64,000 nucleotides of DNA, taken from an uncultured Planctomycetia bacterium (GTDB taxonomy: Bacteria; Omnitrophota; Gorgyraeia; 2-02-FULL-51-18). This document shows, one piece after another, positions 13,784 to 63,630 of the stretch. The DNA lies in contig CAZSGP010000002.1 in NCBI GenBank assembly GCA_964606485.1, positions 319,620-383,619 on the forward strand. The letters are read 5' to 3'. Positions within the stretch are counted from its first letter, which is position 1; every line of letters begins with the position of its first letter. The notes under the pieces are model-generated. The model saw only the letters and a program-made list of their open reading frames with translations, was not told the DNA's origin and did no database searches. The position numbers and the translations under genes were made by a program.

Positions 13784-13787
13784 TTGT

Positions 13788-13862
13788 CATTGCGAGCGCA
13801 GCGAAGCAATCTCGCTTCAAACCGGGATTGCTTCGTCGCTCTCGCTCCTCGCAATGACATTT
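13788..13862. repeat. Imperfect 75-bp palindromic REP-like element (family 2: GTCATTGCGAGCG...GCAATGAC)
   Basis: The arm GTCATTGCGAGCGCAGCGAAGCAATC and its imperfect reverse complement GATTGCTTCGTCGCTCTCGCTCCTCGCAATGAC flank a central spacer. It lies between pepA and the quinone oxidoreductase gene. Confidence 0.65.
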
Positions 13863-43796: not shown

Positions 43797-43906
43797 CCAC
43801 CTCCCCGGCGCTTCGCGTCCACCCCTCCTTGGTAAGGAGGGGAAATCGCTAGCCCTTTCCTCCCCTTACCAAGGGGAGGTGTCCACCGCAGTGGACGGAG
43901 GGGTCA
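43797..43906. repeat. 110-nt multi-hairpin intercistronic repeat element, copy C
   Basis: Near-identical to copy A. It lies between the sufB stop and the sufC start and provides AAAAGGAG before the sufC ATG. Confidence 0.8.
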
Positions 43907-45357: not shown

Positions 45358-45416
45358 GTCATCCCCGCGTAGGCGGGGATCGAATCGTTAGATTCCCGCT
45401 TTCGCGGGAATGACAC
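45358..45416. repeat. Double-hairpin REP-like element, family 1 (GTCATCCCCGCGTAGGCGGGGATC ... ATTCCCGCTTTCGCGGGAATGAC), copy 1
   Basis: Two GC-rich hairpins. It translates to the REP-derived peptide IPAYAGMTG / VIPAKAGI and forms the last codons of the rrf2 ORF. Confidence 0.8.
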
Positions 45417-45879
45417 TACCTTCCTGTCTTGCGCTCAACAATGAAAATTGCACTTCCGCCTGGCTTTTAGTTAAGGTTTCAAGCGTAATCGAATCAAAAA
45501 AATGATCCAGCAAATCTTTGGTGCGCTTCCACACGGGCTTCGCCCCGCACATGCAAATATGATTGCAAACAATGTCTTCTCTCACATGCGGATCGCAGAA
45601 CACTTCAAAGGTGCTGCCTTCGAGCGCATCAATAATTTGCCGAACGGTAATTTCCGACGGCGCTTTCGCGAGCACGTATCCGCCTTGATTACCGGTTTGA
45701 GCCGTCACGAGCTTTGCATTTCGAAGCGCTTGTAAAATTTTCTCGATGTAAGCCACCGGATAATTTTCTTTTTTGGCGAGTTCTTTAATCGTCATCAGCG
45801 TCGCCTGTCCTTCGCGCGCCAAAGCGATCATGCAAACAAGGCCGTATTCGGTTTTAGTGGTGTATCTCATGCTCGCCAT
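45388..45879 (-). CDS. Rrf2-family transcriptional regulator (IscR-like)
   Basis: Start taken at MASMRYTTKTEYGLVCM. Rrf2 wHTH with IscR-type cysteines (CDPHVREDIVCNHICMC). The C-terminal about 10 aa are encoded by the REP element. Confidence 0.8.
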   Translation of the reverse strand: MASMRYTTKTEYGLVCMIALAREGQATLMTIKELAKKENYPVAYIEKILQALRNAKLVTAQTGNQGGYVLAKAPSEITVRQIIDALEGSTFEVFCDPHVREDIVCNHICMCGAKPVWKRTKDLLDHFFDSITLETLTKSQAEVQFSLLSARQEGSVIPAKAGI

Positions 45880-46255
45880 TTCCTTGGTTATTTTTATTCG
45901 TGGACGAATCCGCCGACGCTCCAGTGGCGGAAGAAGAAACCGTAAAAGACGTCCCACAACCACAAGTACCCGTCGCGTTGGGATTCACAAATTTAAATCC
46001 ACCTGATAATAAATCGCTCGAATAATCGACATGCATTCCCCCCAAATAAAGCAGGCTCTTAATGTCAGACACCACTTTGAGTCCGTCCACATCGAAGGCG
46101 CGGTCATTTTCGCCCATTTGATTGTCGAATTTGACGTCATAGCTAAAGCCCGAACATCCCCCGCCCTTGACGCCCACCCGAAGGAAAACGTCTGGCTTTT
46201 GGTCTGCAATCAGCTTCCTTACATGTTGCTTGGCTGCATCTGTTAGTTGGATCAT
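45854..46255 (-). CDS. IscA/SufA/ErpA-type Fe-S cluster insertion protein
   Basis: Start at MIQLTDAAKQHV. HesB motifs with the C-terminal cysteines GTCGCGTSF. Five upstream codons of the listed ORF come from REP copy 2. Confidence 0.85.
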   Translation of the reverse strand: MIQLTDAAKQHVRKLIADQKPDVFLRVGVKGGGCSGFSYDVKFDNQMGENDRAFDVDGLKVVSDIKSLLYLGGMHVDYSSDLLSGGFKFVNPNATGTCGCGTSFTVSSSATGASADSSTNKNNQGNGEHEIHH

Positions 46256-46264
46256 GCTTGCCTC

Positions 46265-46326
46265 CGTCATTCCCGCGAAAGCGGGAATCTAATCGCTTTG
46301 ATCCCCGCCTACGCGGGGATGACAAG
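46265..46326. repeat. Double-hairpin REP-like element, family 1, copy 2 (inverted relative to copy 1)
   Basis: CGTCATTCCCGCGAAAGCGGGAATC..GATCCCCGCCTACGCGGGGATGAC. It translates to RFRGNDG in a spurious ORF. Confidence 0.8.
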
Positions 46327-46419
46327 TGTATTCGGACTAAATAAGTCTGAATTTGGTCGATTAAAAAAGCCAGCGGGCGTTACGCCGACTGACAGGAAAA
46401 TTATACTCTAAAATCTATG

Positions 46420-46839: not shown

Positions 46840-46846
46840 TCGGGTC

Positions 46847-47998: not shown

Positions 47999-48069
47999 GA
48001 AATATAAATAACATATAGATGTTATTTAATCAAGTTTTATAACATAATGCCACGGCTCAATGGGGGGGG

Positions 48070-51000
48070 CTACGCAGATGCTCCTATTGAGGCAAGCGAC
48101 GTCTTTGCAAACTCCACAAACTTCGCCCAGTCGAGCACGGCGAGCACTTTTAAGGAGAGTTTTTTGTAAAATTGTGTGTCGATAGTGGTAACTTTTTTAA
48201 TGGCCTGAAATGCCGCAGGCAAAAGCTCCGAGAACGAGTCGCTTCTTAAATTATTCCACATTTGCTTTAAAGTGTCGGTGACCGACGGCAATCGAGCAGC
48301 CGCCACAGCAAAAGTCGCACTCGCCGCAAATGGAATGGCGGATTTGCCATCACCAAAATTTTCAAAGACCACAGCACCTGCTCCATCAGCTTGGGCGAGT
48401 TTCAAGGCCGCGTCGCTGAGCTTGGAAAAATAGACCATTTCGTACTGATCGCGAGCCAGTCCCTGCAAAGCGTCGGAAGCGCCGTATTCTAAAAAGCGCT
48501 CCCCCGCTAGAGTTCCAAACTGCAACAGCACATTGCTTCCGGCCACAGCGCGAACGGATTTTATTTTAGAAGCGTAAAGCGAAAGCTCTTCGACACTCAA
48601 TTCTTTTTCGGTCACAATTCTTAAAACCACGGTGCGGTCGTTGGAGATGCCTGATTTCTGATAGAGCCTCGTGATCAAGCGCGTCACGCGTTCATTTTCG
48701 GAGTTCAGCTCTAACACTTCCGGTGACGCCATTTGAATCTGTTGACCCACGACGCGCGGTAAGACGGCAACGCTTTCGGAATTGAGTTTGTGTGCTTTTT
48801 CGCGCGTGGCTTCATCAAACGTTAACTTGCCGATGAAAACACGAGCCTCTTCCCCGACGTCACCTCGCCGGTAAAGCTCAACGGCAAGCCCTGCGTCTAC
48901 GAATTTAACTAAAGTAATTCCCGTTAAAAAGGAAAAGGGTCGAGACAATTCATCCTTCGAAAATTGCGCACCAACTTTGTCCGCCAAGCGCGCTAAGAGC
49001 AGAGTGTCAGACGCTTCGAAAGCGCTAGGCATGGATTTGATTTCGTTGGATGGAAGGCGTGCGCCGTAAATTTCTTTAAATGTCGGCACTAATTCTTCGA
49101 TATCCGGCACCTGATAAACCTTAAACGCGGTCTCGCCATTTAACGCGCCTTTATTTTTAAATTTGAGCGTGAATAATTCGGACTGCTGAGGATCTCCCCA
49201 GGCTTTCGGATAATACGGCCCGACATGATTGCCCCACTGACCCATTACAGCAAACGCTCCAGGCTTAAGTTCGCGGCCCAGCTTTTCCCGAAGAGCCGAT
49301 TGAAAACTTTCTCTCTTACCCACACCCAAACCGCTGGGTTGTGTGTAGTAAAAATAAAAAACATCAACCTGACTCCAAGACACCGCCAGTGCGTCCGTGT
49401 TTCCCAAAAATGTAAAATTGTCTCTGGGAACGAGTTGCCAAAATTTGGACTGAATCAGCACGTCCCGGGCGGCCCTCGAAATATCCGCGTCCTTTTCAAC
49501 CGCCGTAATTTTCATCCCGTACAGATAAGCCGCCACGGCAGAAACGCGGAAATCTCCGGAACCCATTTCAAAAAACTGCTTTCCTTCAAGCGACCCTTTT
49601 TCTTTTAATAATTTTTCAAACACTTCAAAAATACTCTTCAGATCCGTTGGTTTGTAGAAACTCGTGTCCGCTACCGCACCTTCCGCATCTTTGAATGCAT
49701 CACCCTGAGTTTCGTAAAACTTCTGAAGCTCTTGGAGTCTCGCCATTCGGCCCTGTTTGCCAAGGGCCAATCGCGCACCAACGCCCACCAGTTGTTGGTT
49801 GGGAGCTAAATCTGGAGCAATCTCTTTAAGAGGCGCTGTCGCTGCGAACATGGGTCGAGGGGCGAGCAGCTCTTGCATCAATTGCTCGGGAGCGGCTCCT
49901 GTCAAAATAAGACGCTCCCCCTTGGCCTCAAACGGCACGTAGGACAGCCAACCCTTTTTGATCGAGAACTCCACCTGATCTTTGGGAAGCGCTTTTAATT
50001 GAACTGTACCGAATGAAGTTCGATTTTTATTGTTGTTGAACGTATGAATCGGAACCAGAATCTCCGCTTTGGCATCTTTCGGATGGTCACGAAGAAAATC
50101 GTTCACTTGTCGGCTTCGACGATCTGTAAGATATTGATTTAGATTAAAATTCTCAACGGCCAGTGAAAGAGCCCCCGACTTCTCGTCAACTGCTAGAATT
50201 CCTAGACGCAAATCACGCACCACTTCTCTAAAATTAGCCCAAACAGACGCCTGTCCTGCTAACGGAATCCAGTAAAGTCGATATTTTTTTGCGCCAAGCG
50301 CGGCTTTGTTTAATTGGTAAAATGATCTCAAATCGGAAAGACGGGCGCCTTCCATCTCCACTCTTCTTTCTTTTGCGGGTTCTTCGGTCACCTTCTCATC
50401 AACAACCGTTGTGGGCTTTTTCTCGCTGAGTATCGCTTCCGCTGAAATACCCTCCTTAAGACTCCGATCAACTTCCCGGGGAGTTAACTGGCCAACTTGA
50501 GCATCTATTTGTTTCAAGATAGCGTCTGAACGAGTCTTTTTAATTTTTAATTCGGCGATTTCATTCGCCTTCTGCTTGATTTTTTCTTTTTCTGTGTTGG
50601 TTAATGCGAAAGCATCTTGGAGAATTTCAAGATCGCCATCGCGATTAACTTGAGTCTCTGCTCCATTCCACTGCTCAGCCAGCTCTTGTGTCATCGTTTC
50701 AAAAACCTCGCCCGTCATCGTGCCTTTAAGTTTTTCATCGCCCTCCAGCGTTAGATCTTGAGGAATGGGCGCATTCAGATTTTTGGCTACGAGCCGCTTG
50801 AGACGAAAAGCTTCGCGAGGCTCGATGTAATCGTGTTCCTTTAGGATCTCTGTCGTTATTTTTTCGATGTCTTTTTCACTAACCTCCTTAACGGCAGATG
50901 AATCGGCGGCGATACGACCGAGCGTGTTCAGATTGTCCAGCGTATTTGCGACGGAACCTTTGTTAACTTGCTCGGTAGCTTCGCTGGCTAAAGTGGCTAT

Positions 51001-54000
51001 AGGATCAAGCTCGCTAGTCAGGGAATTAAAATGTTTTTTTGCCGCGTCGTCGGCTAATGATGCAACCGCGTCGAACTTTTGGCTGACGGAGTTTTTAAGC
51101 TGTCGATCGACAACGGGCACAAATTCTTCTTTTAAGTCTTCAGGGAAGTATTTCCGGTAAACATCTTCAGGAGTAATTGAGTCGACGTATTTTTTGGCTA
51201 GGTCATAAGCGGCCTTCGCTTTTTTGGTGCGTTCAGAACCGGTTATTCGCCCGACCCAACTATCCTTAATTTCCGCCAAGGGAAGCAGAGCGACTTCATT
51301 GTTTTGGGCGACGGCGTCCACTGCCAAGTCATAAATTTCCTTATCACTAGCCCAGTGGACAGGCTCGTTGTCCTTTTCTGCTAAAAAGTCGGCCAAACGA
51401 AGAATTTCAAATCCACTGAGAGAATATTTTTTCCCATAGGGATATGCGGCTTCCAAAAACGAAATTAGTCTTGTTGAACTATTATTCATTCTACCAAGCG
51501 CTTGTATAGCGCTTTCACTTACGATTTTATATTTATCATTTAATAGCTCAATGAGCGCAAGAGCAATATTTGGTGCTACAGGGCCGATCCTGCCAAGAGC
51601 AAAAGCAGCTTCTAAACGAACAGATGGATCCTCGTCTTTTAACGCTTCAATCAGAGCAGGGATGACTTCTTTGGCGGCGGGGCCAATCTGTCCGAGGGTG
51701 ATGGCAGCATTTCTGCGGACAACCCGATCCTTGTCTTTTAATGCTTCAATCAGTGCAGGGATGGGTTCTTCGGCAGTGGGATCAATCTTACCGAGAGCAA
51801 CAATAGCTTGACTGTTACCCAGATCTTCGTCCTTTGACGCTTCAACTAGAGCGGGGATGGCTTCTTGGGCGGCGGGGCCGATTTTGCCGAGAGACTCGGC
51901 GGCGTAGTGACGGACAAGCCAATCTTTGTCTTTTAATGCTTCGATCAACGCTGGAACAACTTCTCTGGCGGCGGGGCCAATCTGTCCGAGGGCGGTGGCA
52001 GCATTTCTGCGGACAGTCGGATCTTTGTCTTTTGATGCTTCGATCAACGCTGGAATGACTTCTTTGGTAGCGGCACCTATCCTGCCGAGAGTTAGGACAT
52101 CACCGTGGCGCATAACCCCGCTCTCGTCTTTCAATCTTTCAAGGAGCGTAGGGATGGCTTCTTTGGCGGCGGGGCCGATTTTGCCGAGAGCAATGTATGC
52201 ATAACCCTCTTCATCTTTCAATGCTTCGATCAACGCTGGAATGACTTCTTTGGTAGCAGGTCCGATCTCTCCGAGAGCAATGGCGGCGCTTCTACGTAGA
52301 TGCAGATTTTTGTCTTTCAATGCTTCAATCAGAGCAGGGATGGCTTCTTGGGCAGAGGGCCCCATCTCCGCAAGGGTCCGCGCAGAACGAACGCGAATAT
52401 TTCCATCTTCATTTTTTAAATCTTCTATTAATTTTTTGATTTCATCGGATCCGGCCATCCGCGCGCCAACTTGGTTAGCTGAAATTTTTTCCAAATCACT
52501 CTGAATAGGAAACCGGACCGCATGCATCCAATAGGAAGAATCGCCTGACGGGCGAGCGGCTATATATTCAGCGAGCGCCTCTTTAAAGGAAGGCGCAATA
52601 ACTCTATGCGTCTCTTTTTTGGAGTCTACAGTAATTTCTTTTTGTTTTTTCACGACGATCACTTTTTTAAAATCGTTACCCATCACCCTGCTGGCCATAT
52701 CCAGCATCGTTTCTGGTACAAAAAATACGTCAATGGCAGAAGCGGAGACTGAGCCCTCCCTCTCCACTTCGGTCTTACCCAAGCGAACGTAAGGAAGCTT
52801 CGCATCCTTAAAAATTTGCATAACAATGATGGTGTGATTTAATCTTTCGCGCACATCCTCGTCGGTGGAATCATTTTCCACCACTACCGGTAACATTGAA
52901 AAAGGGGATCGGTCTCCGAGCGCCCGATCCAGATTTTGGTCTACGTCCTTCGATGCAGGCATAGCCACTCCATACACGCGGTCGTCATAGATCAAATCTC
53001 CACCTGCGTCCGGATAATCCAAATCCCGCGAAAATGCGAAGATCGTATCCGGTCTCTTTTCCATTATCGCCCGCCTCGATAAAATCCCATGCGTCATAAT
53101 ACTTTTCATATGTTTTTCGCGCGCTTTGTCAATTGATACATCAGCCATCCGCGCGCCGAAACCTTCGCTTTGGTCCACCCAATCCATACTAGCTCGAAAT
53201 ATCTCACCGATTTCAGGATCGTTTTTTAATTGGCTGATGACGCTCCGAGCTTTCTTAGAAACATCCGACAGGCTTGTCCGGGCGATATTGTTCAGGAAAA
53301 TGTAATTGTTCATTTGATAGTTGGTAGAAGTGTTTTTAGCTGGGAATTTGATCAATAAATGGGCATATTCCATGTCTTTTTCATCAAAAATATCGGGACT
53401 TGCGATTGATAGCGCCGGGAGAAGGTCCGACAATATTTCCTTTTCAAGGTAACTTAGATTGGCGGGCGCCTTTCTTTCGGATTGAATTCGCGCCAAGATC
53501 CGATAGGCCGCTTTTTTGTCACGGGAAAGCTGAAAATATTCATCAATTGCCTGTCTTGCAACAATCCGCTCCTTGTCTGTGCTGGCTAAATTGAAATAGG
53601 TTTCAATGCAGGTTGAATCGAGCGGATTGACGACACGCGCAACCGACTCTTGGAGTGCTGTCGTGACCGGCTCGCCCACAGCCGGCTTGCTGCTGTCTGA
53701 CAACCAAAAATAAATCTGCGCGGCGAGCAAAGGAACGGGTCCCATTAAAATGAAAACCTTCACAGCTGTAAGCGCATAAAGCCCCGTAAATAGAAGTGTT
53801 GTTCTTAGGAACAGTGTGAAGGCAATATCCTCAAGGCGGGTCTCTTTGCTGGTCGCCATCCCTGCCTGTCCGGCAGACAAACGCGCGCCGGCTAGAACTC
53901 TATTTAATTCATGCGGAAATTGTATGGGTGCATGCAAATGAACCGTCTCGTTTGTCGGTTCGATGTGAATAGTGTTTGGGGCTATAACCGAGAATTTAAC

Positions 54001-57000
54001 CCCCTCTCTAAAAATTCCTTTTTCAGCCCAATCTTGAAGCGCTTTGCTTACAAGCTCGGTGTCTTTAGTAGGATCTTTAAGGAGACTGAGATAGATTTTG
54101 TCTGATCCGAGTTGGATATACGGGCCCTTTAATGAGTCTTCGCCTTTGGTGATTAAATTAGCATTTTGAGTGGGCGTGCCGGAAAGGCGCGCGCCGGAAT
54201 TGAGCGCCGACAAATCCACATTCACCATGCGGTTTATAGCCGCTCCGACCGGGCGCAGTTTGGCTTCGATGACCACGGGCCTTGGGTAATCTTCGGAGCC
54301 GCTCGCTGGAAGCCACATGAGATCAATTTGGCCATCTAATTCAAATCCGTCCGGGACACCGATTGCTTTAAGCCTTTGGGACAAATAACGAACCTCGGCC
54401 TTAACCTGTTCATCCATCTGCTTGGAAAAACCGTCTTTTTTGCCTTCCGAAATCCCTGCCGCTTCATAAAGCGGCGCGTAAATAGTGGGCCAATAATCTT
54501 TCTGGGTCTGAGCTTCTCCGGTAATAAATGTAAAATACGACGAGCTCCCGACACGCGAATGCCAACCGCTCAAATTTTTATCCCCGTCCCTTTCTTTGAG
54601 CAGCACCACGTCGCCGCCGACCGTAAATTGATAGCGCGTCCTTAGCTCCAGCGCTTTACCGTGATAACGCAAAACGGGTGACAATGTCTCAGCCACTCCG
54701 TAATTCTCTCCTATAAACAATTCCCAAAATTCCCGCAATCGGCTAGCCGCATCTTCTCTACTAGCGTCAATAACCAATTGCGTGATTTCTTCAGACGGCT
54801 TGTCTAGGACTGGCACCTTACGGAAAGAAAAATGAGCCTTTACGCGCTGCAATTGATCATCAGACGCGATCGAGCGGTAATCGGCAAACGTGATCACAAA
54901 CGCTCCTTCCTGATTTTTTTCAATCATAAATATGCCATTTCCCATGCTCATCGAATTCGCTTTAACCACGATTGGCAGAGCGCGCGCGCCGCTCATAATT
55001 TCATCGAGCAGTTGGCGCGGTGTTCTGCTTCCTCCAGACGGAATCAGCTCAAGAACAGGCTGTTCCTCAAGAAGGCGGATGTGAAAGGGCTCCGGACCCT
55101 GCCATGATCCATTTACAAAGCGCTTTCCAAAAACCACGTATTCCGGTTGAATCATCGGACCCCCATCCAACAGGCGACGCATTTCGTATTTTCTCGAAAA
55201 CGTCTGAATTAGATTGTCGAATGGCACTTCACTAGCCGACAAGCGGGCACCCGATGATAATGCATCGGTCGGCCTCTGAACTAAAATCTGTCCCGGCTCG
55301 GTTAACCAATGCGTACTAGAGGACTTATTGGAGTCGGTGAAATAAGGCAACGCTAGACTCATATTCTTCGAAATAATCCCAGCGAGTGTTTTCACCTCTG
55401 AGACACTGTTTAGCAATACCTCTTTTTTAAATGTTCTATGAGAAAGAAGATGGGAAATTTTACCGATGCGAGGCTGATTGACGCCGGCCAACCATATTTT
55501 TAATTTTTGGTCCGGCTCTACCAGTATGGTGTAATAACTATCCCTGTAATTAGACTGGACGTAAATTAAGGTCCCTGGTATTTCATCGAATAAATTTAGA
55601 AATTCAACCTCATCCGGCTTCCGGGACGTGTCAAACTTAGGCGCCGCCTCGCTCGAAGAACCTGGAGCCCATGGTCCCGCAGACATCTCGGGATTATGAA
55701 ATTCATAAAACACTTGCCTTAGATATAACTGGCTCATAGCGACAAGCGGTACAGCAGCCGCCAGAACATCAATCCCTACGATGATAGCCGCAAACAATGG
55801 CATACCAAAATAAATCAATCCCAATGAGGTTATTCCGCCAAAAATAATACCCGCACCCCAATAGGCCAAGCGATTTTCATCTATTGAAATACCCAGAAGA
55901 ACATGGGTGGGTATTTCAGCCATCCTCGCCCCGTCCGGCAGGCGGTCTTTAGGAATCTCGTTACGATTTAGAAGATTTAGCTCTCTCTGGACTGCCTGAA
56001 CCGCTTCTTCCAAAAATTTTTTAAATTGATCTCCTGAATAATCTTTCTGTATTGCCTCTACCATTTTCTTCGACTCTTGGGCTAACGCTTTGGCCTTAGC
56101 CCAGTCCTTTGCTTCTTTCCTCACTGCATTGCGGTCCCCTTGAATTTTTTCATAAGCTCGATCCAACTTGGATGAAAAACGGCTATCCTCAATCAGCTCG
56201 GCTTCGGCGATATCTCCCTTAATCGCCGCAAATATTTGAAGCGCCATCCACATTTTTAAAACGACGCGGCCCCGAATGAATTGCCCCGGCCTCCAGGAAA
56301 CTAGGTATGCGTCCGCCATTTTTTCGGCTGTGACCAAGTCCATGGCTTCGATCCCGCGCTTGTTCAGCGCTCTGTACAAATTCAGAAAAACAATCTTGTG
56401 TTTCAAATCCGGTATGGATTCGACACTTTCAACAAGTTCCTTCGACGTTTTTTCATCCATCTCGGTCTTTATGGACTTTAGATTTTCGATCAACGATTCT
56501 AATTTCAAGACGTTCTCTTGGCTTAATTCATCAAAAAGCACCTGTTTTAATTTTGGGTTGGCGCTACTCCACTTTAAAACCGTTTTCATGGTCTCGGGTT
56601 CAACGTTTTCAAGCAGCGCCGCCGGCCCCCCACGCTGGCGCACCGTTTTCAAATCACCCGATTCATTGTAGGCAATCGCGGTGACAAAATTGGGGACGGT
56701 TTTTGAATCAAATAGACCTTTAAAATAGCGGTAGTACACCACCTCGTTCTCTTCCAAAACTTTTTGGTAGTTCTGAGCGACCGGACTCGTCAAGACAGTC
56801 TTTAAGGGGCTTGGCTCGGCGGGCGCCATCGCCTGGGAAGCCTCGGGCGACTGAGAAGACTCGACGGATTCTTGGTAATGGATGGAGGCTTGGGTCAATA
56901 AATGCGAGGTAGAAATTGGTAAAAGCGCTAAAAATAAACCGATCGTGAAAGGAAGCATTCGTCTAAGCAATTGATTCTGAGAGTTTGCCGCAATGATAAT

Positions 57001-60000
57001 TCCCAAATAAACGAGCGCTGTGCAAAGCACTCCGGGAATTCCTAAAGCCGTGTACGCTGAAAGCGCTCCGACAAGCATGCTCGCGGAGGCAGCGCTAAAG
57101 TTTGCCGGGCTAAGAGATGCGAATCGTGCACCGGCGGCCTTCAGAAAATTTATTCTTTTAGCCATTTCTGCCGACCGGCCAAAATCTGCCGCCAATCGCG
57201 GCGCAGTCACTGAGAGCTCCGGATCGTTTTTAAAATATTCTGAAATGTATGAATAAATATCGGCAATAGCATTTCTAATTTTTTGCTGTACTTGCTCTGG
57301 GGTGGCTTCGGCTGCATCCCGGCTCCACAGCTGCGCGACGGCACGAAGGCTTTTCTCATCAACAAGGTCCGTTTGTCCGCTTGCAACTTTCAGCGCCCCC
57401 CTAAACTTCAGCAGAAGGGCGTATTCCTCAATAACCTTCTGGCTTTTTGGAAGTCTTTCCAAAACCTCAAAAGAGCTCGAAAAAGAACGCAACTCAGGAT
57501 GCCGGCTTTTTTCATGCCAAACCAGAAAATGAATGGCGCGGATCACGGCCAATTTTATATTCAATTCTTTTGCGCCCGAAATGACCGGGGTTTGAACACT
57601 GTCTAATTCCTCCAAAAGTGCCTTCTGATGATCACTTCGAGAACTTCCATAGAGATTGTTAGCAACAATCCGTTGAATCAGCACCTGGTCATACTGGTCC
57701 CTGCTACCCGCCACAAAATAAATATCCCGAAACGTAGTCGGCGTGTTGCTGGGAACCTCTATATCGGCATCAATGGCTGGTTCGTATCTTTTTTCAAAAG
57801 GCGCCCATATTTCTTTTGCGCCACCCAGCTCTTCCAGAGATAGAAAATATTTATCCCCCAAACTCTCTTTCATTCCTTCATCCACATCCAGATCCGGCAG
57901 CTTGTATTCATCCACCCACTGCTCAAGCTGAATTTTAATCGCTTCGTGTATTTTTTTTGCATTTTCTTTATTTGCGGCGCTGACCGGAATAACCTTAAAA
58001 TCGATGTCCGAAAAATAAACCAACTCGTCTTTCCGGGCCAAGCTTCCGTAGCTAGCCACCACAAAATCATTCAAATCGACGCCGATCTTTTGCGACACGG
58101 CCTCCGCAGCTAAACGAACGGTTTGATTGAGCCAGCTCGTCATTGAAGTCGAAGCTTTTATCTGCCGCTCCCTATTTATTTCAGGAGCACTCGCTTCAAT
58201 CTCCACATCCCGTTTTAAATCTTTGTAAACTTGAACATGTTGCGCCATTGGATCTTCCGCCAACCGCGCCCCGCTCACGGGCATAAACTTCTCCAAAGCA
58301 GACTTATAAACAAACTCCGGCATCTCACCATCAATCTTGAGCAGTACGATTTCACCACTGGCCACCGCCGCCTTAAAATCGGTTTCATTTGAAATTTTCC
58401 ACCCCATGTTTTGCTCGATGCCAGGGATGAGAACATTTTTTGCTACGTGCCTTCCTTTTCCGGGAGGAATTTTAGAAAGCGCCTCTTTTGTGGGGAAAAT
58501 TCTAAAATGATATTTTTTTCCAAATCTAGCCAGCACATCAAATTCCATCAAGTCTGAATCTGTCTCCACCGTCGCCAGTGTAATTACAGCGCCCTGATCA
58601 AAGCTTTGGCCCTGATGCAATGCGCCGTTCACACCGCTAATCTTAATTTTCCATTGTCCTTCTTCAAAAAAAATCTCCGCATGCTTTCTGGAGATTGTTG
58701 AGCCTGGTATTGATATCTCATTCTCCGGATTCCGCCCAACGAAGTATCTTTTTTCAGGTGTAAGCGTTATAGGCGATCCGCTTGTCGTTGTGACTACTAA
58801 ATTTTTTCCGTCCAAGTGATAACCAAACTTGCCGTCCCCCAAAAACATCTCTTGGGTGGTAGGCTCGGTGGAAGTAGCGGCGGGCGCGCCAAATCGTTTC
58901 CGAAACTCCGCAATCACCGGTATCCTGTTGAGATATTTTTCAGAAACATCGACGTAATTAGTATTGGAGGGGTGCGATTGGCCTGCGTATTCTCTCGCTT
59001 GTTTTCGATACTCATATGCGGGAGTCGTAAAGGACCCACCCTTGACCCATTTTGCCCTTAAACCTAAAACTCCAATTTTACCGGTGGTTTCAATGCTACC
59101 AATCCACGATCTTCCATCTTTATCCGTCATAAAAATAAAACGTAGATTTTTATTGAGCGATCTAAAAACACGCGCGGTGACCATTCCATAAAGATTTGTT
59201 TGCATCGTAGTCTGATCTTTTTTGGGATCGAAACCCTCAAAATTAGGAGCATCCCCCGGGTCCGTAAACCGAACATCTTCGGGCCTCGGTTTTTTCGTAG
59301 AGTCCACCATCCCGAAACGGTCCATCACCAAAGAACCTTCCTTTAACCGCTGCGCGTTCCTGTCGATGGCCATTTTATAAGTCCCCTGTAAATCATAATT
59401 ATTCTGATAATCCCGTGTCGTTCCCGCAAAAATCAACTCTTGAACACGCTTATCTCTTATCTCAACAATTTTCTTTTGCTCGGAAATTTTGTTGAGCGCT
59501 ACTTGAATTTCAAAAGGAAGTGTAATGCTGTCTTCTCCAAAACCTTTGTCATACCAATCAATCTCTCCAAGCCCATCCAAGTAAACACTAGGCAAGTATC
59601 TCCACAATGCTTGGGAATTGCTCAAATAATAAGTTCTCGCCACGTATCTGTTTCCCGCTTTTACATAGGCAATCGCAGCCAGTCGTTTATCTTTCATTTC
59701 AAATAAATTCGATGCAAACAAAAGCACCTGCCCGTCCACATTAACCCGATGCTTGGGAATCATCCCTTCGCGTCTTAGCAAGTCCGTGGTCAAAAATTCA
59801 CCCTTAAAGGACCGTCCGTGAATATCCGTTTTAGCTAAAATCGCAAGCCCTTCTTCAGCGCCAATTTCGACAGGAGCATCGGCCTGGAGCGAAATTTCCT
59901 CATTAACCCCTGCCGGAGAAGCCAAAGAAACGTTAAACCTATCGATCATTTTTTCAACGATATTTTTGATGGCTTCCTTGGCTTGCGCAGGAATGGAGTT

Positions 60001-63000
60001 ATCGAGTGCATAGCTAAAAGCACCATCACCGCTTTCCGCGGAAAGATTACGAATGAGGTGAAGCCGATACTGACCCGGTTTTAGTGCGCTCGCTTTGCCA
60101 ATCGATAAAATATTTCCGTCAATCCCAATAATGACCTCTACGATAATTTTTTTGTACGTATTGCTCGACACAAGAGCGCTTTCGAAATCGTCGGATTTTA
60201 GTTTTTTGACGTTCGTCTGAAGAATGAGCTCGTCATCGTCCTTTAGATTGGCTCTCAGGATCGAAAGCACTTTTGTTTCTCCGGAGTCCATGTCTTCATT
60301 GTCTTGCGTGCGGCGTGAAGCGGCGGCTATTTCGATGAGCGGCAAGTACAAATCTCGAGGCATCCGGTAGGAGGCCACTAATTCATAAAACTCGCCGAGT
60401 TTTCCCGCCTTTGAAGCGTCCTTTAAATCGTCGGATTGTCTCAAGAAAAATTCGATTTCGGACATTTCGGTTAAATTCATTTTTCCGCTAAGATCTTCGA
60501 CTGCTTTTTTAAACAAAGATTGGTCGGCCAGCCATCCCATATCCACAAACTGAAGCGGCGGCACTTTCGTGCCGTTGGTTGATTCCAAATCTTGCACAAC
60601 TACCATCGGCAACCCTTGAGAGGCGTCCAAATGAATTTCAAAATGACGCGTTGAAATTCCAGGATCAGAGAGCTCGCTCGCATCCCGTCCTGCAATAAAT
60701 GGTTTGCCCGTCATAAGTTTCTGGAATGAGGGATCCAGTTCACGCGAATCACCGACTTGCGCATATTTTCTTAAAATAAATTCATCCCCTCTTTTTTCTA
60801 TCGCAAAATCCGTATTGCCTGCCCGCAGCAATGGCCTCGCTCCATCTTCGGTCATTGTCATAAAATAGGGTACGTTCGCGGTGAGGGGGGTTGTGAATAA
60901 ATCACTTGGCGCAAGGGAGGCTAAACGCGAACCGCTTGGAGGAGCGACCTCATCCATTCTCTGCAAAACCAGCTTAATCTGACTCTTTATGCTTTCGGGA
61001 TAACGCCTAAATGAGGGGCTTGTTACAACCGCCTGAACAGATTGCTTGAGCTTTGAAAGATCTTCCTTGGAAAGATTTCTTTCCTCTAGAAATTTATCAA
61101 AAGCTACTGAGATTCCGTTAAAATTTTTAGCTTCTTCCGCCCCAAATCCTGGAAACATCTTTCGCATATCCAGATTTATTTTTGAAATCAAGCTGTTAAA
61201 ATCAAGATATTGCGGCAATCCTAAGTCGAGATACTGAACCTTTGAGACTTCATTCTTTGACTTCACAACAAAATTATCGGGCTTCAAGTCGCCGATCGTG
61301 ATTCCCGTATCTGCATATCTATTGGCTTGGCTTATTAAAAGCCAGGCTCTCACAATAGTTTCGACCACGCTGGCGTATTTATCCCGCGTTATCCCGGTAA
61401 CTGCGCCGATCTCCACGCCGTTTTTCAAATCAACATACTCCCCAACCGTGAACCCCGTATATTTAACGGGCTTCTCGCCGATACCCATCACCAAGGGAAT
61501 GTAGCCATACACCTCGATGGCCACACCGTTTAACTCATTGTATTTCCTGAAAAGCTGCACTTCCTTTTTTGCAGTATCCTCACCGCCATTTTTTATAAAT
61601 CGGATTCCAATAACATGCGATTCGAGCACTCCATCTTTGTTTGAGGCTTCAATTTCCATTCTTAGAACGTATTTATAATTTCCCTCGCCCCCATAGCTAA
61701 TTTTTTTAATTTTTACTTCTTTTAAATTCTGAAGATTCGCCATTTCCAAAATTTTGTCCATATTTGAATAAATGTAGGGGACTGTCGCTTCATAATCCTG
61801 CGGATCAATCCCTTCCAAAATAGAGACCGCCATCCTCGCCCCCGCCGCCTTAAAATCATCCACCACGGCACTCACCTCTTGCGGCGTTGCCCCCGCTTCA
61901 CTTAAAAGCTCCGTAAGCGTACTAGGTCTATTTTCCGCAGCTGCGAGTCGTGCACCGGGGGCCGTCAACACAGGCCGAAGGTCATTATTTTTCTGCCTAC
62001 TTTTAAGCAAATCCTTCTCCAAAGCACTTAAAGGTTTATCCGCATGAGACTCGCCCTGCACCATCTCCACCTTTTTAATTTCTGCGTGCATGGGTTCAAG
62101 CAGCAGCTTTTCATATTTCTTTTGATTCGTTTCTGCCGTCACCACCGGCGTCAGCACCGCGATCGAATACCCCTTTTCGGAAAGGAGTTTCTTTAAATGC
62201 GGCGTGTGATAACCACCCGCGATCATAAACGCGGCATTCGCATTATTTTCAGCGAGCGCTTTTTCGGCATTTTGGAGAAACACGAAATCTCTCTTCGACA
62301 CCGTGTCATAAAAAGCCTCGAGCGACTTACGGCCTTCATCCAAAACCGGTTCAAGCACCAAAAGATCTTCGAAATATCCAAGCTCCGCGAGTTTTCGATT
62401 GATAAATGCTAAATAAGATAATGTTGAGAAATCGGGCTCATTGGCTTTAAACGTTTCAAAATCTTTCGTCGTCATTTGAATTTGGTAGGCTGTTTTGAGG
62501 AGTTTCAGGTAACGGTCGATGGAGCGAATAAGCCTAGTATCACTGGATTGCTTCGCTTCGCTCGCAATGACAGATAAGTAAACTTCGTCTTCGATGGCTT
62601 CCATTTCGCCTAGCAGAACATCCAGATCAATCGCAGAAAAAAACTGCAAGTATTCCGCGTATTTTTCAAGATGCGGAAACTTTTCAAGATTCACTCCCTT
62701 TACCTTTGCCATATTCAATGTGTTTAAAATTGGGCCAAGCCGCGAAAGCTTGTTGTCATTCCCGCGCAAGCGGGAATCAAGTTGATCCCCGCTTAAAGAT
62801 TGCGGGGATGACCGAAGCTCTTCCAACAATGCGGCCAGCTCGAGATTGGAGAGATTGAAATCGATTAATTTTTCCTGAAGCGAAAGCTCAACAAGTTTTT
62901 CAGCATTTGGGTACTTTTCGAGTTCTATTTTATTCTGAGAAGCCATCTCGAGCAGCGCTTTGAATTTTTTCTCAAACGAACTCTCCGCCCCATAAAGCTT

Positions 63001-63630
63001 CTCAAATTGGAGCAGTTCTTTGGGGTAGAGCTTCGACTTGATCTGATCTTCCGCACGCTGAATAGCGTGGAGATAATCGAGTATCTTTTCCCGGCGAGTG
63101 GCCAAATCGCCGTAACTTTGAACACTTTTTAAATAGAGCTCCTGATCCTCAAGTCCCATAATTTTCATTGGATGCTCGCTTGTTAAATTTAAATATTCCT
63201 CCCCCGAAATTTTTCCAAGCAGTAAATATTTTTTAGCAATCCGTTTCCAAACAGCGGGTGTCGCGATTTTTTTGAGTGCTGTCAGCGAGCAGTCATCGAT
63301 ACCACCCTCCGACAACACTAGCTTGATTCCATACTTTGACATCAGAAAATCAAGTGCGCCCGAGAGATTCTGTTGTCCCGAAAAATTGGCATGCGCGTCT
63401 TCGATTTGGATAATCAACTTTCCCCCGGACGCTTTAGAAACCTCTTTGAGCGAACAAAATTCGGTGGGTACGTCTAGCTGCTGTGGCTCCGCTAAAAGCG
63501 AGGTAAGTAGCGGCGGTGAAACAGGCGTCGCCCCAATTTCAGTCCCGGCAAAACCAAGCTCTTGCAAAAAGAAAGCGAAAGCTAAAACTAAGCTGACAAG
63601 GCGAACCGTTAGGCACTGTCTGTTTTTCAT
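48070..63630 (-). CDS. Giant multidomain protein (5186 aa): signal peptide, Tiki/TraB-like domain, kinase-like domain, two FHA domains, Pol-beta nucleotidyltransferase, ATP-grasp-like segment, three TM blocks, HEAT-repeat array, SAM-MTase-like segment
   Basis: A single uninterrupted 15.56-kb ORF in a roughly 50% GC genome. Several independent domain signatures were recognised by eye (detailed in the sub-features). Confidence 0.75.
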   Translation of the reverse strand: MKNRQCLTVRLVSLVLAFAFFLQELGFAGTEIGATPVSPPLLTSLLAEPQQLDVPTEFCSLKEVSKASGGKLIIQIEDAHANFSGQQNLSGALDFLMSKYGIKLVLSEGGIDDCSLTALKKIATPAVWKRIAKKYLLLGKISGEEYLNLTSEHPMKIMGLEDQELYLKSVQSYGDLATRREKILDYLHAIQRAEDQIKSKLYPKELLQFEKLYGAESSFEKKFKALLEMASQNKIELEKYPNAEKLVELSLQEKLIDFNLSNLELAALLEELRSSPQSLSGDQLDSRLRGNDNKLSRLGPILNTLNMAKVKGVNLEKFPHLEKYAEYLQFFSAIDLDVLLGEMEAIEDEVYLSVIASEAKQSSDTRLIRSIDRYLKLLKTAYQIQMTTKDFETFKANEPDFSTLSYLAFINRKLAELGYFEDLLVLEPVLDEGRKSLEAFYDTVSKRDFVFLQNAEKALAENNANAAFMIAGGYHTPHLKKLLSEKGYSIAVLTPVVTAETNQKKYEKLLLEPMHAEIKKVEMVQGESHADKPLSALEKDLLKSRQKNNDLRPVLTAPGARLAAAENRPSTLTELLSEAGATPQEVSAVVDDFKAAGARMAVSILEGIDPQDYEATVPYIYSNMDKILEMANLQNLKEVKIKKISYGGEGNYKYVLRMEIEASNKDGVLESHVIGIRFIKNGGEDTAKKEVQLFRKYNELNGVAIEVYGYIPLVMGIGEKPVKYTGFTVGEYVDLKNGVEIGAVTGITRDKYASVVETIVRAWLLISQANRYADTGITIGDLKPDNFVVKSKNEVSKVQYLDLGLPQYLDFNSLISKINLDMRKMFPGFGAEEAKNFNGISVAFDKFLEERNLSKEDLSKLKQSVQAVVTSPSFRRYPESIKSQIKLVLQRMDEVAPPSGSRLASLAPSDLFTTPLTANVPYFMTMTEDGARPLLRAGNTDFAIEKRGDEFILRKYAQVGDSRELDPSFQKLMTGKPFIAGRDASELSDPGISTRHFEIHLDASQGLPMVVVQDLESTNGTKVPPLQFVDMGWLADQSLFKKAVEDLSGKMNLTEMSEIEFFLRQSDDLKDASKAGKLGEFYELVASYRMPRDLYLPLIEIAAASRRTQDNEDMDSGETKVLSILRANLKDDDELILQTNVKKLKSDDFESALVSSNTYKKIIVEVIIGIDGNILSIGKASALKPGQYRLHLIRNLSAESGDGAFSYALDNSIPAQAKEAIKNIVEKMIDRFNVSLASPAGVNEEISLQADAPVEIGAEEGLAILAKTDIHGRSFKGEFLTTDLLRREGMIPKHRVNVDGQVLLFASNLFEMKDKRLAAIAYVKAGNRYVARTYYLSNSQALWRYLPSVYLDGLGEIDWYDKGFGEDSITLPFEIQVALNKISEQKKIVEIRDKRVQELIFAGTTRDYQNNYDLQGTYKMAIDRNAQRLKEGSLVMDRFGMVDSTKKPRPEDVRFTDPGDAPNFEGFDPKKDQTTMQTNLYGMVTARVFRSLNKNLRFIFMTDKDGRSWIGSIETTGKIGVLGLRAKWVKGGSFTTPAYEYRKQAREYAGQSHPSNTNYVDVSEKYLNRIPVIAEFRKRFGAPAATSTEPTTQEMFLGDGKFGYHLDGKNLVVTTTSGSPITLTPEKRYFVGRNPENEISIPGSTISRKHAEIFFEEGQWKIKISGVNGALHQGQSFDQGAVITLATVETDSDLMEFDVLARFGKKYHFRIFPTKEALSKIPPGKGRHVAKNVLIPGIEQNMGWKISNETDFKAAVASGEIVLLKIDGEMPEFVYKSALEKFMPVSGARLAEDPMAQHVQVYKDLKRDVEIEASAPEINRERQIKASTSMTSWLNQTVRLAAEAVSQKIGVDLNDFVVASYGSLARKDELVYFSDIDFKVIPVSAANKENAKKIHEAIKIQLEQWVDEYKLPDLDVDEGMKESLGDKYFLSLEELGGAKEIWAPFEKRYEPAIDADIEVPSNTPTTFRDIYFVAGSRDQYDQVLIQRIVANNLYGSSRSDHQKALLEELDSVQTPVISGAKELNIKLAVIRAIHFLVWHEKSRHPELRSFSSSFEVLERLPKSQKVIEEYALLLKFRGALKVASGQTDLVDEKSLRAVAQLWSRDAAEATPEQVQQKIRNAIADIYSYISEYFKNDPELSVTAPRLAADFGRSAEMAKRINFLKAAGARFASLSPANFSAASASMLVGALSAYTALGIPGVLCTALVYLGIIIAANSQNQLLRRMLPFTIGLFLALLPISTSHLLTQASIHYQESVESSQSPEASQAMAPAEPSPLKTVLTSPVAQNYQKVLEENEVVYYRYFKGLFDSKTVPNFVTAIAYNESGDLKTVRQRGGPAALLENVEPETMKTVLKWSSANPKLKQVLFDELSQENVLKLESLIENLKSIKTEMDEKTSKELVESVESIPDLKHKIVFLNLYRALNKRGIEAMDLVTAEKMADAYLVSWRPGQFIRGRVVLKMWMALQIFAAIKGDIAEAELIEDSRFSSKLDRAYEKIQGDRNAVRKEAKDWAKAKALAQESKKMVEAIQKDYSGDQFKKFLEEAVQAVQRELNLLNRNEIPKDRLPDGARMAEIPTHVLLGISIDENRLAYWGAGIIFGGITSLGLIYFGMPLFAAIIVGIDVLAAAVPLVAMSQLYLRQVFYEFHNPEMSAGPWAPGSSSEAAPKFDTSRKPDEVEFLNLFDEIPGTLIYVQSNYRDSYYTILVEPDQKLKIWLAGVNQPRIGKISHLLSHRTFKKEVLLNSVSEVKTLAGIISKNMSLALPYFTDSNKSSSTHWLTEPGQILVQRPTDALSSGARLSASEVPFDNLIQTFSRKYEMRRLLDGGPMIQPEYVVFGKRFVNGSWQGPEPFHIRLLEEQPVLELIPSGGSRTPRQLLDEIMSGARALPIVVKANSMSMGNGIFMIEKNQEGAFVITFADYRSIASDDQLQRVKAHFSFRKVPVLDKPSEEITQLVIDASREDAASRLREFWELFIGENYGVAETLSPVLRYHGKALELRTRYQFTVGGDVVLLKERDGDKNLSGWHSRVGSSSYFTFITGEAQTQKDYWPTIYAPLYEAAGISEGKKDGFSKQMDEQVKAEVRYLSQRLKAIGVPDGFELDGQIDLMWLPASGSEDYPRPVVIEAKLRPVGAAINRMVNVDLSALNSGARLSGTPTQNANLITKGEDSLKGPYIQLGSDKIYLSLLKDPTKDTELVSKALQDWAEKGIFREGVKFSVIAPNTIHIEPTNETVHLHAPIQFPHELNRVLAGARLSAGQAGMATSKETRLEDIAFTLFLRTTLLFTGLYALTAVKVFILMGPVPLLAAQIYFWLSDSSKPAVGEPVTTALQESVARVVNPLDSTCIETYFNLASTDKERIVARQAIDEYFQLSRDKKAAYRILARIQSERKAPANLSYLEKEILSDLLPALSIASPDIFDEKDMEYAHLLIKFPAKNTSTNYQMNNYIFLNNIARTSLSDVSKKARSVISQLKNDPEIGEIFRASMDWVDQSEGFGARMADVSIDKAREKHMKSIMTHGILSRRAIMEKRPDTIFAFSRDLDYPDAGGDLIYDDRVYGVAMPASKDVDQNLDRALGDRSPFSMLPVVVENDSTDEDVRERLNHTIIVMQIFKDAKLPYVRLGKTEVEREGSVSASAIDVFFVPETMLDMASRVMGNDFKKVIVVKKQKEITVDSKKETHRVIAPSFKEALAEYIAARPSGDSSYWMHAVRFPIQSDLEKISANQVGARMAGSDEIKKLIEDLKNEDGNIRVRSARTLAEMGPSAQEAIPALIEALKDKNLHLRRSAAIALGEIGPATKEVIPALIEALKDEEGYAYIALGKIGPAAKEAIPTLLERLKDESGVMRHGDVLTLGRIGAATKEVIPALIEASKDKDPTVRRNAATALGQIGPAAREVVPALIEALKDKDWLVRHYAAESLGKIGPAAQEAIPALVEASKDEDLGNSQAIVALGKIDPTAEEPIPALIEALKDKDRVVRRNAAITLGQIGPAAKEVIPALIEALKDEDPSVRLEAAFALGRIGPVAPNIALALIELLNDKYKIVSESAIQALGRMNNSSTRLISFLEAAYPYGKKYSLSGFEILRLADFLAEKDNEPVHWASDKEIYDLAVDAVAQNNEVALLPLAEIKDSWVGRITGSERTKKAKAAYDLAKKYVDSITPEDVYRKYFPEDLKEEFVPVVDRQLKNSVSQKFDAVASLADDAAKKHFNSLTSELDPIATLASEATEQVNKGSVANTLDNLNTLGRIAADSSAVKEVSEKDIEKITTEILKEHDYIEPREAFRLKRLVAKNLNAPIPQDLTLEGDEKLKGTMTGEVFETMTQELAEQWNGAETQVNRDGDLEILQDAFALTNTEKEKIKQKANEIAELKIKKTRSDAILKQIDAQVGQLTPREVDRSLKEGISAEAILSEKKPTTVVDEKVTEEPAKERRVEMEGARLSDLRSFYQLNKAALGAKKYRLYWIPLAGQASVWANFREVVRDLRLGILAVDEKSGALSLAVENFNLNQYLTDRRSRQVNDFLRDHPKDAKAEILVPIHTFNNNKNRTSFGTVQLKALPKDQVEFSIKKGWLSYVPFEAKGERLILTGAAPEQLMQELLAPRPMFAATAPLKEIAPDLAPNQQLVGVGARLALGKQGRMARLQELQKFYETQGDAFKDAEGAVADTSFYKPTDLKSIFEVFEKLLKEKGSLEGKQFFEMGSGDFRVSAVAAYLYGMKITAVEKDADISRAARDVLIQSKFWQLVPRDNFTFLGNTDALAVSWSQVDVFYFYYTQPSGLGVGKRESFQSALREKLGRELKPGAFAVMGQWGNHVGPYYPKAWGDPQQSELFTLKFKNKGALNGETAFKVYQVPDIEELVPTFKEIYGARLPSNEIKSMPSAFEASDTLLLARLADKVGAQFSKDELSRPFSFLTGITLVKFVDAGLAVELYRRGDVGEEARVFIGKLTFDEATREKAHKLNSESVAVLPRVVGQQIQMASPEVLELNSENERVTRLITRLYQKSGISNDRTVVLRIVTEKELSVEELSLYASKIKSVRAVAGSNVLLQFGTLAGERFLEYGASDALQGLARDQYEMVYFSKLSDAALKLAQADGAGAVVFENFGDGKSAIPFAASATFAVAAARLPSVTDTLKQMWNNLRSDSFSELLPAAFQAIKKVTTIDTQFYKKLSLKVLAVLDWAKFVEFAKTSLASIGASA
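49230..49593 (-). other. SAM-dependent methyltransferase-like segment (motif I)
   Basis: FFEMGSGDFRVSAVAAYLYGMKITAVEKD resembles MTase motif I (E/D-x-G-x-G) with an acidic residue at the end of beta2. Tentative. Confidence 0.3.
51486..52467 (-). repeat. About ten tandem HEAT (PBS-lyase-type) repeats, with a 93-bp periodic near-identical DNA repeat
   Basis: The 31-aa unit AIPALIEALKDKD..VRR.AA.ALG.IGPAAKE is repeated about 10 times. At DNA level, blocks such as GTCTTTTAA(C/T)GCTTCAATCAG.GCAGGGATG recur with a 93-bp period. Confidence 0.85.
53694..53823 (-). other. Internal hydrophobic (TM) block 3
   Basis: IAFTLFLRTTLLFTGLYALTAVKVFILMGPVPLLAAQIYFWL. Confidence 0.55.
54210..55023 (-). other. 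ATP-grasp-like segment of the giant protein
   Basis: ALPIVVKANSMSMGNGIFMIE (compare vvKP..gs.G.Gv) and later PVVIEAKLRP (compare viEvN..P). Tentative. Confidence 0.3.
55725..55869 (-). other. Internal hydrophobic (TM) block 2
   Basis: LAYWGAGIIFGGITSLGLIYFGMPLFAAIIVGIDVLAAAVPLVAM. Confidence 0.55.
56910..57078 (-). other. Internal hydrophobic (TM) block 1 of the giant protein
   Basis: MLVGALSAYTALGIPGVLCTALVYLGIIIAA...MLPFTIGLFLALLPI, two predicted helices. Confidence 0.55.
57180..58143 (-). other. Pol-beta superfamily nucleotidyltransferase domain (GlnE/GlnD/DUF294-like) plus helical region
   Basis: ASYGSLARKDELVYFSDIDFKV carries the GS...D.D NTase signature. Confidence 0.6.
58560..58779 (-). 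other. FHA domain 2 of the giant protein
   Basis: YFVGRNPENEISIPGSTISRKHAEIFFEEGQWKIKISGVNGALHQG. Confidence 0.55.
60540..60738 (-). other. FHA domain 1 of the giant protein
   Basis: FIAGRDASELSDPGISTRHFEIHLD...VVVQDLESTNGTKV matches the FHA consensus (GR..D..l.d..vSR.Ha.i...........DlgStNGT.vN). Confidence 0.7.
61140..61713 (-). other. Protein-kinase-like domain (non-RD; catalytic D/K/N retained) in the giant protein
   Basis: Gly-rich loop ISYGGEGNYKYVL, catalytic-loop-like IGDLKPDNFVV (compare HRDLKPEN), and DLG in place of DFG (YLDLGLP). Confidence 0.5.
62546..62574. repeat. Single arm of the family-2 REP-like element (GTCATTGCGAGCGAAGCGAAGCAATCC), in-frame in the giant gene
   Basis: It matches the arm of the 13788..13862 palindrome and encodes VIASEAKQS within the giant protein. 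Confidence 0.6.
62749..62808. repeat. Family-1 double-hairpin REP-like element inserted in-frame inside the giant gene (copy 3)
   Basis: GTCATTCCCGCGCAAGCGGGAATCAAGTTGATCCCCGCTTAAAGATTGCGGGGATGAC. In the gene frame it encodes SSPQSLSGDQLDSRLRGND; the opposite strand gives SFPRKRESS. Confidence 0.8.
63544..63630 (-). other. Predicted N-terminal signal peptide of the giant protein
   Basis: MKNRQCLTVRLVSLVLAFAFFLQELGFAG: basic n-region, hydrophobic core and an A-x-A-like end. Confidence 0.6.

Follow-up and report, generated by a model that had tools for sequence, protein, structure and literature searches.

The 64,000-nucleotide stretch of contig CAZSGP010000002.1 analysed here (assembly GCA_964606485.1, hereafter the window), from an uncultured bacterium of the Omnitrophota, carries a giant gene whose open reading frame (ORF) is uninterrupted over 5,186 codons. 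Two different repetitive extragenic palindromic (REP) elements, here called family 1 and family 2, are read in frame within the conserved N-terminal domain of the encoded protein, and close relatives of both are found elsewhere in the window (Table 1). Both in-gene copies lie within the first 1.1 kb of the 15.6-kb gene, and a pattern search found no further copies of either family elsewhere in the giant ORF.

Table 1 The giant gene and the REP elements of the window.
Feature	Coordinates	Strand	Remarks
Giant ORF, 5,186 amino acids (aa)	48070..63630	minus	N-terminal hydrophobic segment, conserved N-terminal domain, FHA domain, HEAT-repeat region
Conserved N-terminal domain, aa 1-520	62071..63630	minus	Host of both repeats; in some relatives a stand-alone protein or an ORF of its own
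Family-1 REP dimer in giant ORF	62755..62812	minus	Translated as aa 273-292, (R)SSPQSLSGDQLDSRLRGND
Single family-2 REP arm in giant ORF	62546..62571	minus	aa 354-362, VIASEAKQS
Family-1 REP dimer, interval between Rrf2-family gene and sufB	45358..45414		Second arm provides the end of the Rrf2-family ORF
Family-1 REP dimer just 5′ of Fe-S biogenesis (HesB/IscA-like) gene	46266..46323		Inverted relative to 45358-45414
Family-2 REP dimer with a 26-nt arm, a 33-nt arm and a spacer of 14 nt	13786..13858		Fills the gap between M17 aminopeptidase and alcohol dehydrogenase genes

The family-1 element of the gene consists of two inverted hairpin arms, GTCATCCCCGCAATCTTTAAGCGGGGATC at 62784-62812 (minus strand; 8-bp stem, 9-nt loop) and GTCATTCCCGCGCAAGCGGGAATC at 62755-62778 (plus strand; 8-bp stem, 4-nt loop), separated by a 5-nt spacer at 62779-62783. 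The short-loop arm differs at one of 24 nt from the arms 45391-45414 and 46266-46289. The long-loop arm agrees with 45358-45381 and 46300-46323 in tag and stem, but its loop is 9 nt long and theirs 4 nt; the gene thus contains a near relative of the intergenic dimer and not an exact copy. A family-1 arm combines a GTC tag with a stem of 8 bp, a loop and a tail led by C, and the dimers are inverted with the tags outermost. In all six family-1 arms of the window the stem is perfect, starts with AT and is either ATTCCCGC or ATCCCCGC, both types being present in the dimers 45358-45414 and 46266-46323, and the loop measures 4 nt in every arm except 62784-62812. The family-2 element of the gene is a single arm, GTCATTGCGAGCGAAGCGAAGCAATC, which equals the arm 13786-13811 at 25 of 26 nt. 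An initial annotation of this DNA had already recognised both elements as in-frame parts of the giant ORF, and this holds for the family-2 arm with its peptide VIASEAKQS as well as for the family-1 element, although the latter ends at 62812 and not at 62808. The family-1 copies near 45358 and 46265 had been described as intergenic, which is not wholly true of 45358-45414, whose second arm (45388-45414) provides the last 8 codons (VIPAKAGI) and the TAA stop of an Rrf2-family ORF (45388..45963, minus strand).

Long hairpins are formed by the family-1 dimers, with folding energies between -33 and -40 kcal/mol and z-scores between -5 and -7.5; the in-gene dimer reaches -33.5 kcal/mol as mRNA (z = -5.9). 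The family-2 dimer 13786-13858 folds at -41.6 kcal/mol, and the single family-2 arm of the gene is no more stable than its shuffles (-7.1 kcal/mol, z = -0.1). At neither in-gene element does the gene strand have a predicted terminator-like site, and an Rfam scan of the window at gathering thresholds returned no family. In 100 dinucleotide-preserving shuffles per repeat pattern, the chance expectation of each family-1 and family-2 pattern was 0.00.

The host domain belongs to a family known from metagenomes. The first 520 residues of the giant protein have 24 homologues, all metagenomic and 37-57% identical, of which the named ones belong to Candidatus Omnitrophota; the best of them cover 96-100% of the query at 40-50% identity. 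A metagenome scan yielded no relative of the window gene above 53% identity and no empty allele for the junctions of the window itself. The motifs IQ(I/D)(E/Q)DAH and GGYHT are conserved across the homologues. The domain had been labelled Tiki/TraB-like, a name for which the hints are weak: the window protein has no Pfam match, Cofac_haem_bdg (Tiki superfamily) is matched by two of 25 members of the domain family at E 0.043 and DUF5694 by one of 25 at E 0.0018, and a Foldseek search of the PDB gave a top match at E 0.08 with the BcR135 chains 3b55 and 2rad at E 0.1-0.5. A profile search of PDB sequences with the domain produced no relevant match. The architecture around the domain varies among the loci L003/L004 and L001 and the window (61800-63630): one lineage has it as a stand-alone protein of 618 aa, another as a separate ORF of 747 aa upstream of an ORF of at least 4,049 aa, and the window has it fused to the giant ORF.

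When 32 homologues are aligned, 20 of which come with DNA, four insertion hot spots stand out, at aa ~232-240, 274-292, 354-362 and 462-465 of the window protein, which are occupied by REPs or by other palindromes. At the position of the family-1 dimer (site 1), most homologues have a loop of 22-24 aa with the ancestral pattern KGG.E.L...L.K....K. In the window, L001, L002 and L092 this loop gives way to a REP dimer whose orientation and frame are the same in all four, and in L005, L129 and P0006 a single REP-like unit of the opposite orientation is present. At the position of the family-2 arm (site 2), 12 of the 20 DNA-supported orthologues have an insertion, and seven of these insertions start with GTCAT, six directly after the residues VY-x-x and that of L131 one codon earlier, after VY-x. 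The window and L001 have the stem ATTGCGAG, and L005 and L130 have the same start as these two with nested elements; in L131 and L132 the stem is ATTCTGAG, and L002, L006, L092 and L129 contain unrelated palindromes. The GTC ATT of the REP (Val-Ile) replaces the ancestral Leu-Leu at the end of a helix.

Close relatives differ in the occupancy of these sites. First, L132, which is 67% identical to L002, retains the ancestral KGG..L..K loop at the place where L002 has the REP dimer. Next, L131 and L133, at 89.7% amino acid and 88.4% nucleotide identity, differ by a 69-nt indel with a 66-nt REP dimer at site 2. Finally, L128, L129 and L130 are ~80% identical and display three different states of site 2. 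The initial annotation had suggested a comparison with orthologues as a check on insertion: most orthologues do not have the two peptides, and the genomes of the carriers also hold the repeat between genes, as is evident in the metagenome-assembled genome LH-05nov19-156 with its in-gene copy L092 and the intergenic copies L010, L042, L094 and L099. A native loop sequence that came to resemble the repeats by chance or convergence is hardly credible under these circumstances. The family-2 arm is short (26 nt), which is all that speaks for coincidence, and the idea is refuted by the absence of any match in the shuffles, by the many orthologues without the peptides, by the occupied and empty versions in closely related pairs and by the intergenic copies of the same repeats in the same genomes.

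An AlphaFold model of aa 1-520, built on the alignment of the 24 homologues, reached a predicted local distance difference test score (pLDDT) of 85.9 and a predicted template modelling score (pTM) of 0.80. In the model, aa 274-292 link the helices 258-273 and 294-310 and form the least confident internal stretch (block means 67 and 59), and aa 354-362 comprise the last turn of the helix 336-356, the loop 357-361 and one residue, the first, of the helix that follows. The two segments are thus predicted to lie at helix-connecting loops, and the notion of a loop tolerant to insertion, one of two suggestions of the initial annotation, is borne out by the orthologues with insertions at the same sites. 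The other suggestion, that the N-terminal domain is in recent decay and that the insertions mark a region free of selection, could appeal to the two repeats within 270 nt and to the many relatives with insertions in the domain. It is contradicted by the intact frame of the ORF, by the nearly full-length alignment with the best homologues and by the confident model; moreover, the in-gene repeats of the whole domain family are all in frame and limited to four loops, which makes decay highly improbable.

By its tag, its 8-bp stem starting with AT and its inverted dimers, the repeat material of the window fits the CGTC-tagged REP superfamily (PMC3733652). In that superfamily the CGTC tag is often TGTC, and the stems are 8-9 bp long with A-T as the first two pairs (Di Nocera et al. 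2013, PMC3733652). The loop has 4 nt in its family 1 and 5 nt in its families 2-4, exceptions being allowed, and the tail is CCA; most of the repeats are inverted dimers and most lie between genes, near ORF ends, intragenic copies exist with in-frame dimers that code for 20-30 aa, and no dedicated transposase has been reported (PMC3733652). Neisseria dRS3 and Rickettsia RPE-6 and RPE-4 are members, and the subgroup CGTC-1 includes dRS3 and R. conorii RPE-6 (PMC3733652). The elements described here resemble CGTC-1 in the unpaired (C/T)GTC tag, the AT-first 8-bp stem, the mostly 4-nt loops, the inverted dimers, the mainly intergenic placement near ORF ends and the occasional in-frame copies. They differ from it in the 9-nt loop of one in-gene arm and of a cross-phylum subfamily (AATCTTTAA), where the published loops have 4-5 nt with exceptions, and in the tails, which in the window are CTA, CGA, CAA or CAAA instead of CCA. 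The short-loop arm ATTCCCGCGAAAGCGGGAAT also conforms to ATTCCC-N8-GGGAAT, the consensus of dRS3. Among the window arms GTC is preceded by T, T, C, T, T and G, and in the 292 units of the collected loci by T in 193 and by C in 86, and 198 of these 292 units have the CCA tail. Family 2 differs from the CGTC repeats in its perfect stem of only 5 bp (ATTGC/GCAAT) and its purine-rich interior, and because of these features its assignment is made by tag and dimer form only. No transposase domain was found in the ORFs of at least 150 aa in the window.

A scan for the 29-nt long-loop form with one genome per species gave at least 119 stretches. The matches listed include Omnitrophota, Nitrospirota, Atribacterota, Zetaproteobacteria, Planctomycetota, Elusimicrobiota, Caldisericota, KSB1, Ignavibacteriota, Margulisiibacteriota, Gammaproteobacteria, Leptospiraceae and others, and among them (L008-L126) the variant is nearly unchanged in more than 12 phylum-level lineages. 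Judged by these sequence matches, its spread exceeds the five phyla that were given for CGTC repeats in 2013, and the Omnitrophota host and most of the matched phyla are outside that list (PMC3733652). Most copies lie in short open frames and are therefore intergenic. Among the matches listed, 22 of 277 units are located deep inside ORFs of at least 250 aa and the other 255 are not; of the 22, 17 are read in the frames F1, R2 or R0, three in F2 and two in the VIP.IF frame. The peptides of F1, R2 and R0, S[SF]P.S..G[DN], [SF]P[IL]K..G[DN]D and DSRL..G.., are mostly hydrophilic, and VIP.IF is more hydrophobic. Genomes with the repeat in an orthologue of the giant gene domain also have intergenic copies.

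In-frame copies occur in other Omnitrophota proteins as well. A second protein family with the motif ILP.IEKE.NEGKNFA has in-frame REPs at one common site (L053 3116-7615, L103 3681-8000, L081 7183-7998), and the dimer of L103 is of the composite type of the window, with a long-loop CCCC arm and a short-loop TCCC arm coding for SSPQSLSGD..DSRLRGND. A further in-frame dimer (SSPKSFVGD..DSRLKIAGMT) is found at L005 1157-1222, near the C-terminal end of the P0019 ORF and past the conserved domain.

The history of the insertions was examined in a neighbour-joining tree based on 445 well-occupied columns. The four carriers of the site-1 dimer (the window, L001, L002 and L092) fall into separate lineages, and each of them has a closer dimer-free relative: L132 for L002 (67%), L136/P0009 for L092, P0006 for L001, and L006/P0004/L138 for the window. 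The separate carriers together with the occupied and empty pairs favour recurrent and recent gain, possibly also loss, over a single ancient event. The findings are thus very likely explained by recurrent recent insertion of REPs into permissive loops, filtered by selection, rather than by convergence or decay of the domain. According to this explanation, CGTC-type REPs would insert by a transposase-independent or trans-acting route, and copies within coding sequence would survive only in permissive helix-connecting surface loops, where they would be read in stop-free, mostly hydrophilic frames (SSPQSLSGD / DSRLRGND) with the frame kept by a net inserted length that is a multiple of three. Several REP stem types, and unrelated palindromes as well, would have colonised the same four loops repeatedly and recently in different lineages of the Omnitrophota, and ancestral loop residues would have been lost in some of these lineages. 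The in-gene copies are probably selectively near-neutral passengers and not functional parts of the protein.

Several observations weigh against such a simple course of events. The loop at site 1 of the window is as long as those of the REP-free orthologues (22 versus 22-24 aa), so that simple insertion is insufficient and an accompanying deletion must be assumed; as the 22 residues are almost entirely REP-coded while the ancestral length is maintained, the ancestral residues must have been lost. In L001 (3117-3165) and L002 (7322-7365), the site-1 dimer is directly followed by GACAAAACAAAGACA, 15 nt that repeat the native downstream coding sequence TGTCTTTGTTTTGTC in inverted form and make a new hairpin that includes conserved codons (VSLFCH). 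The identical 3′ flank of these two loci had been considered as part of a larger mobile unit, which was rejected since it is this inverted copy of adjacent native coding sequence. In the minus-strand gene of L092 (~1290-1370), a 24-nt unit, ACAACGTCATCCCCGA[A/G]CACTGAC, which comprises the REP tag and half a stem, is triplicated in tandem before the REP dimer and translated as TTSSPNTD TTSSPSTD TTSSPKSLIGD. Mobility itself was not directly observed, copies in the source organism were counted within the 64 kb only, and the support values of the tree come from a first, smaller tree only, in which most deep nodes are below 60%. Finally, all in-gene stems are perfect, and the window and L002 agree in the 29-nt arm at 29 of 29 positions, with its site, orientation and frame also in common, while the domains are ~48% identical. 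The perfect stems and the identical arm would also fit maintenance of the hairpins by selection or gene conversion, and the replaced loops, the fused inverted copy and the triplicated tag leave room for hairpin maintenance or palindrome-guided copying.

Maintenance of this kind would be central to an improbable scenario in which the dimer entered site 1 once and long ago, together with a REP at site 2, and the hairpins were kept by gene conversion or by selection on RNA or DNA structure, for example for mRNA stability or for translational pausing after the N-terminal domain. Besides the identical arm, the common site, orientation and frame (S[SF]P.S..G[DN]) in the window, L001, L002 and L092 and the strong mRNA fold of the dimer would agree with it, as would differences between copies that look compensatory, ATCCCCGC/GCGGGGAT versus ATTCCCGC/GCGGGAAT versus ATCCCCGA/TCGGGGAT. 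These stem variants, however, form intergenic subfamilies throughout the genomes of many phyla, and the seemingly compensatory differences may just reflect different source copies. The closer relatives of the carriers (L132, L136/P0009 and P0004/L138) retain a loop of ancestral type with homology across the family, and an ancient insertion would therefore need several exact reversions. Site 2 likewise argues against a single old event, with at least three REP stem types besides the unrelated palindromes and with turnover between L131 and L133 at 88% nucleotide identity, and the single family-2 arm is no more stably folded than shuffles.

A possible, though on balance unlikely, variation concerns how the elements arrive repeatedly in the same register: targeted copying guided by structure or microhomology, such as template switching at quasi-palindromes, could lie behind it, beyond selection among random hits. 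At site 2, at least four lineages that appear independent have GTC ATT as the start of the insertion immediately behind VY-x-x. At site 1, four lineages have their dimers in one orientation and frame, some ancestral loops are replaced and not extended, and the inverted copies in L001 and L002 and the triplicated tag in L092 are further features of interest for such copying. If copying were indeed targeted in this manner, the domain family would constitute a natural record of how REPs move.

In-frame palindromic repeats within genes are a known curiosity and have been best studied in Rickettsia. The Rickettsia palindromic elements (RPEs) are described as in-frame, translated palindromes in otherwise intact genes that are compatible with the protein fold (Ogata et al. 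2000, 2002, as summarised in PMC10969869 and PMC3733652). The elements of the giant gene resemble them as a phenomenon: the repeat is in frame, the ORF is intact, orthologues do not have the element, it avoids the core of the fold, and several can occur per gene. The RPE-1 type, as far as these summaries describe it, measures ~100-150 bp, compared to 26 and 58 nt here, and RPEs are by the same accounts scattered over unrelated housekeeping genes, whereas the present insertions affect four loops of one domain family and turn over quickly. REPINs are doublets of GTAG-tagged REPs mobilised by RAYT, an IS200/IS605-like tyrosine transposase. The dimers share with them the two inverted REP hairpins, the short spacer, the potential to fold as one long hairpin and the lack of a target-site duplication, but the tag is GTC(AT) and not GTAG. 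No RAYT or Y1 transposase was found in the 64-kb window, and with the (C/T)GTC tag this led to the rejection of REPIN/RAYT membership. [quoted passage not shown] No direct repeat flanks the three family-1 copies or the indel between L131 and L133; the copies are therefore not MITE-like, and this model was rejected. Small non-autonomous repeats with some copies inside ORFs also include the enterobacterial ERIC elements. In Coxiella burnetii, the QMITEs, as portrayed in PMC5896051, are small non-autonomous repeats of which some lie inside ORFs and add peptide segments.

In-frame REPs in coding sequence are uncommon, as the initial annotation stated, but they had already been described, namely the Rickettsia RPEs and GTAG- and CGTC-tagged REPs (PMC3733652; PMC10969869). 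The preprint on giant genes (10.1101/2023.11.21.568195) contains no word starting with "palindrom" or "MITE", and no literature search was aimed at Omnitrophota cases. The present observations extend the phenomenon to the Omnitrophota and to a giant protein. Their main value lies in the recurrent colonisation of the same sites and in the close relatives with occupied and empty sites, in one domain family whose four loops are hit repeatedly and which includes an occupied and an empty version at 88% nucleotide identity. This makes the family convenient material with which to date insertions, map their exact junctions and test for targeting. No transposase has been tied to the spread of the CGTC class. 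For annotation, the peptides SSPQSLSGD, DSRLRGND and VIA.EAKQS in large Omnitrophota proteins are best read as repeat-derived loop filler and not as functional motifs.

Other palindromes are present in the window. The giant ORF contains a single-copy perfect palindrome at 55885-55918, with an 11-bp stem and a 12-nt loop, which is unrelated to the REP families. The mutually inverted dimers 45358-45414 and 46266-46323 bracket an 850-bp segment with the HesB/IscA-like and Rrf2 genes at the head of a suf operon (sufB, sufC, sufD, sufS, nifU). The only independent assembly of the region, a 6.6-kb Logan contig of SRR12487046 (L127, corresponding to window 45460-52064) matched through an exact protein sequence, has one end adjoining the dimer 45358-45414 and the other inside a HEAT repeat array with a 99-nt period (51482-52376), as expected since repeats induce assembly breaks. 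A third, composite palindromic family (CCTCCCCTTACCAAGGGGAGG and partners) occurs at 39888-39980, 40586-40653 and 43814-43905, in all cases between genes of the suf/nadA string. The copies 39888-39980 and 40586-40653 had been candidates for intragenic elements, which was rejected as only mechanical ORFs span them; both end just 5′ of a GGGGAGG Shine-Dalgarno sequence, upstream of real starts, and are therefore intergenic.

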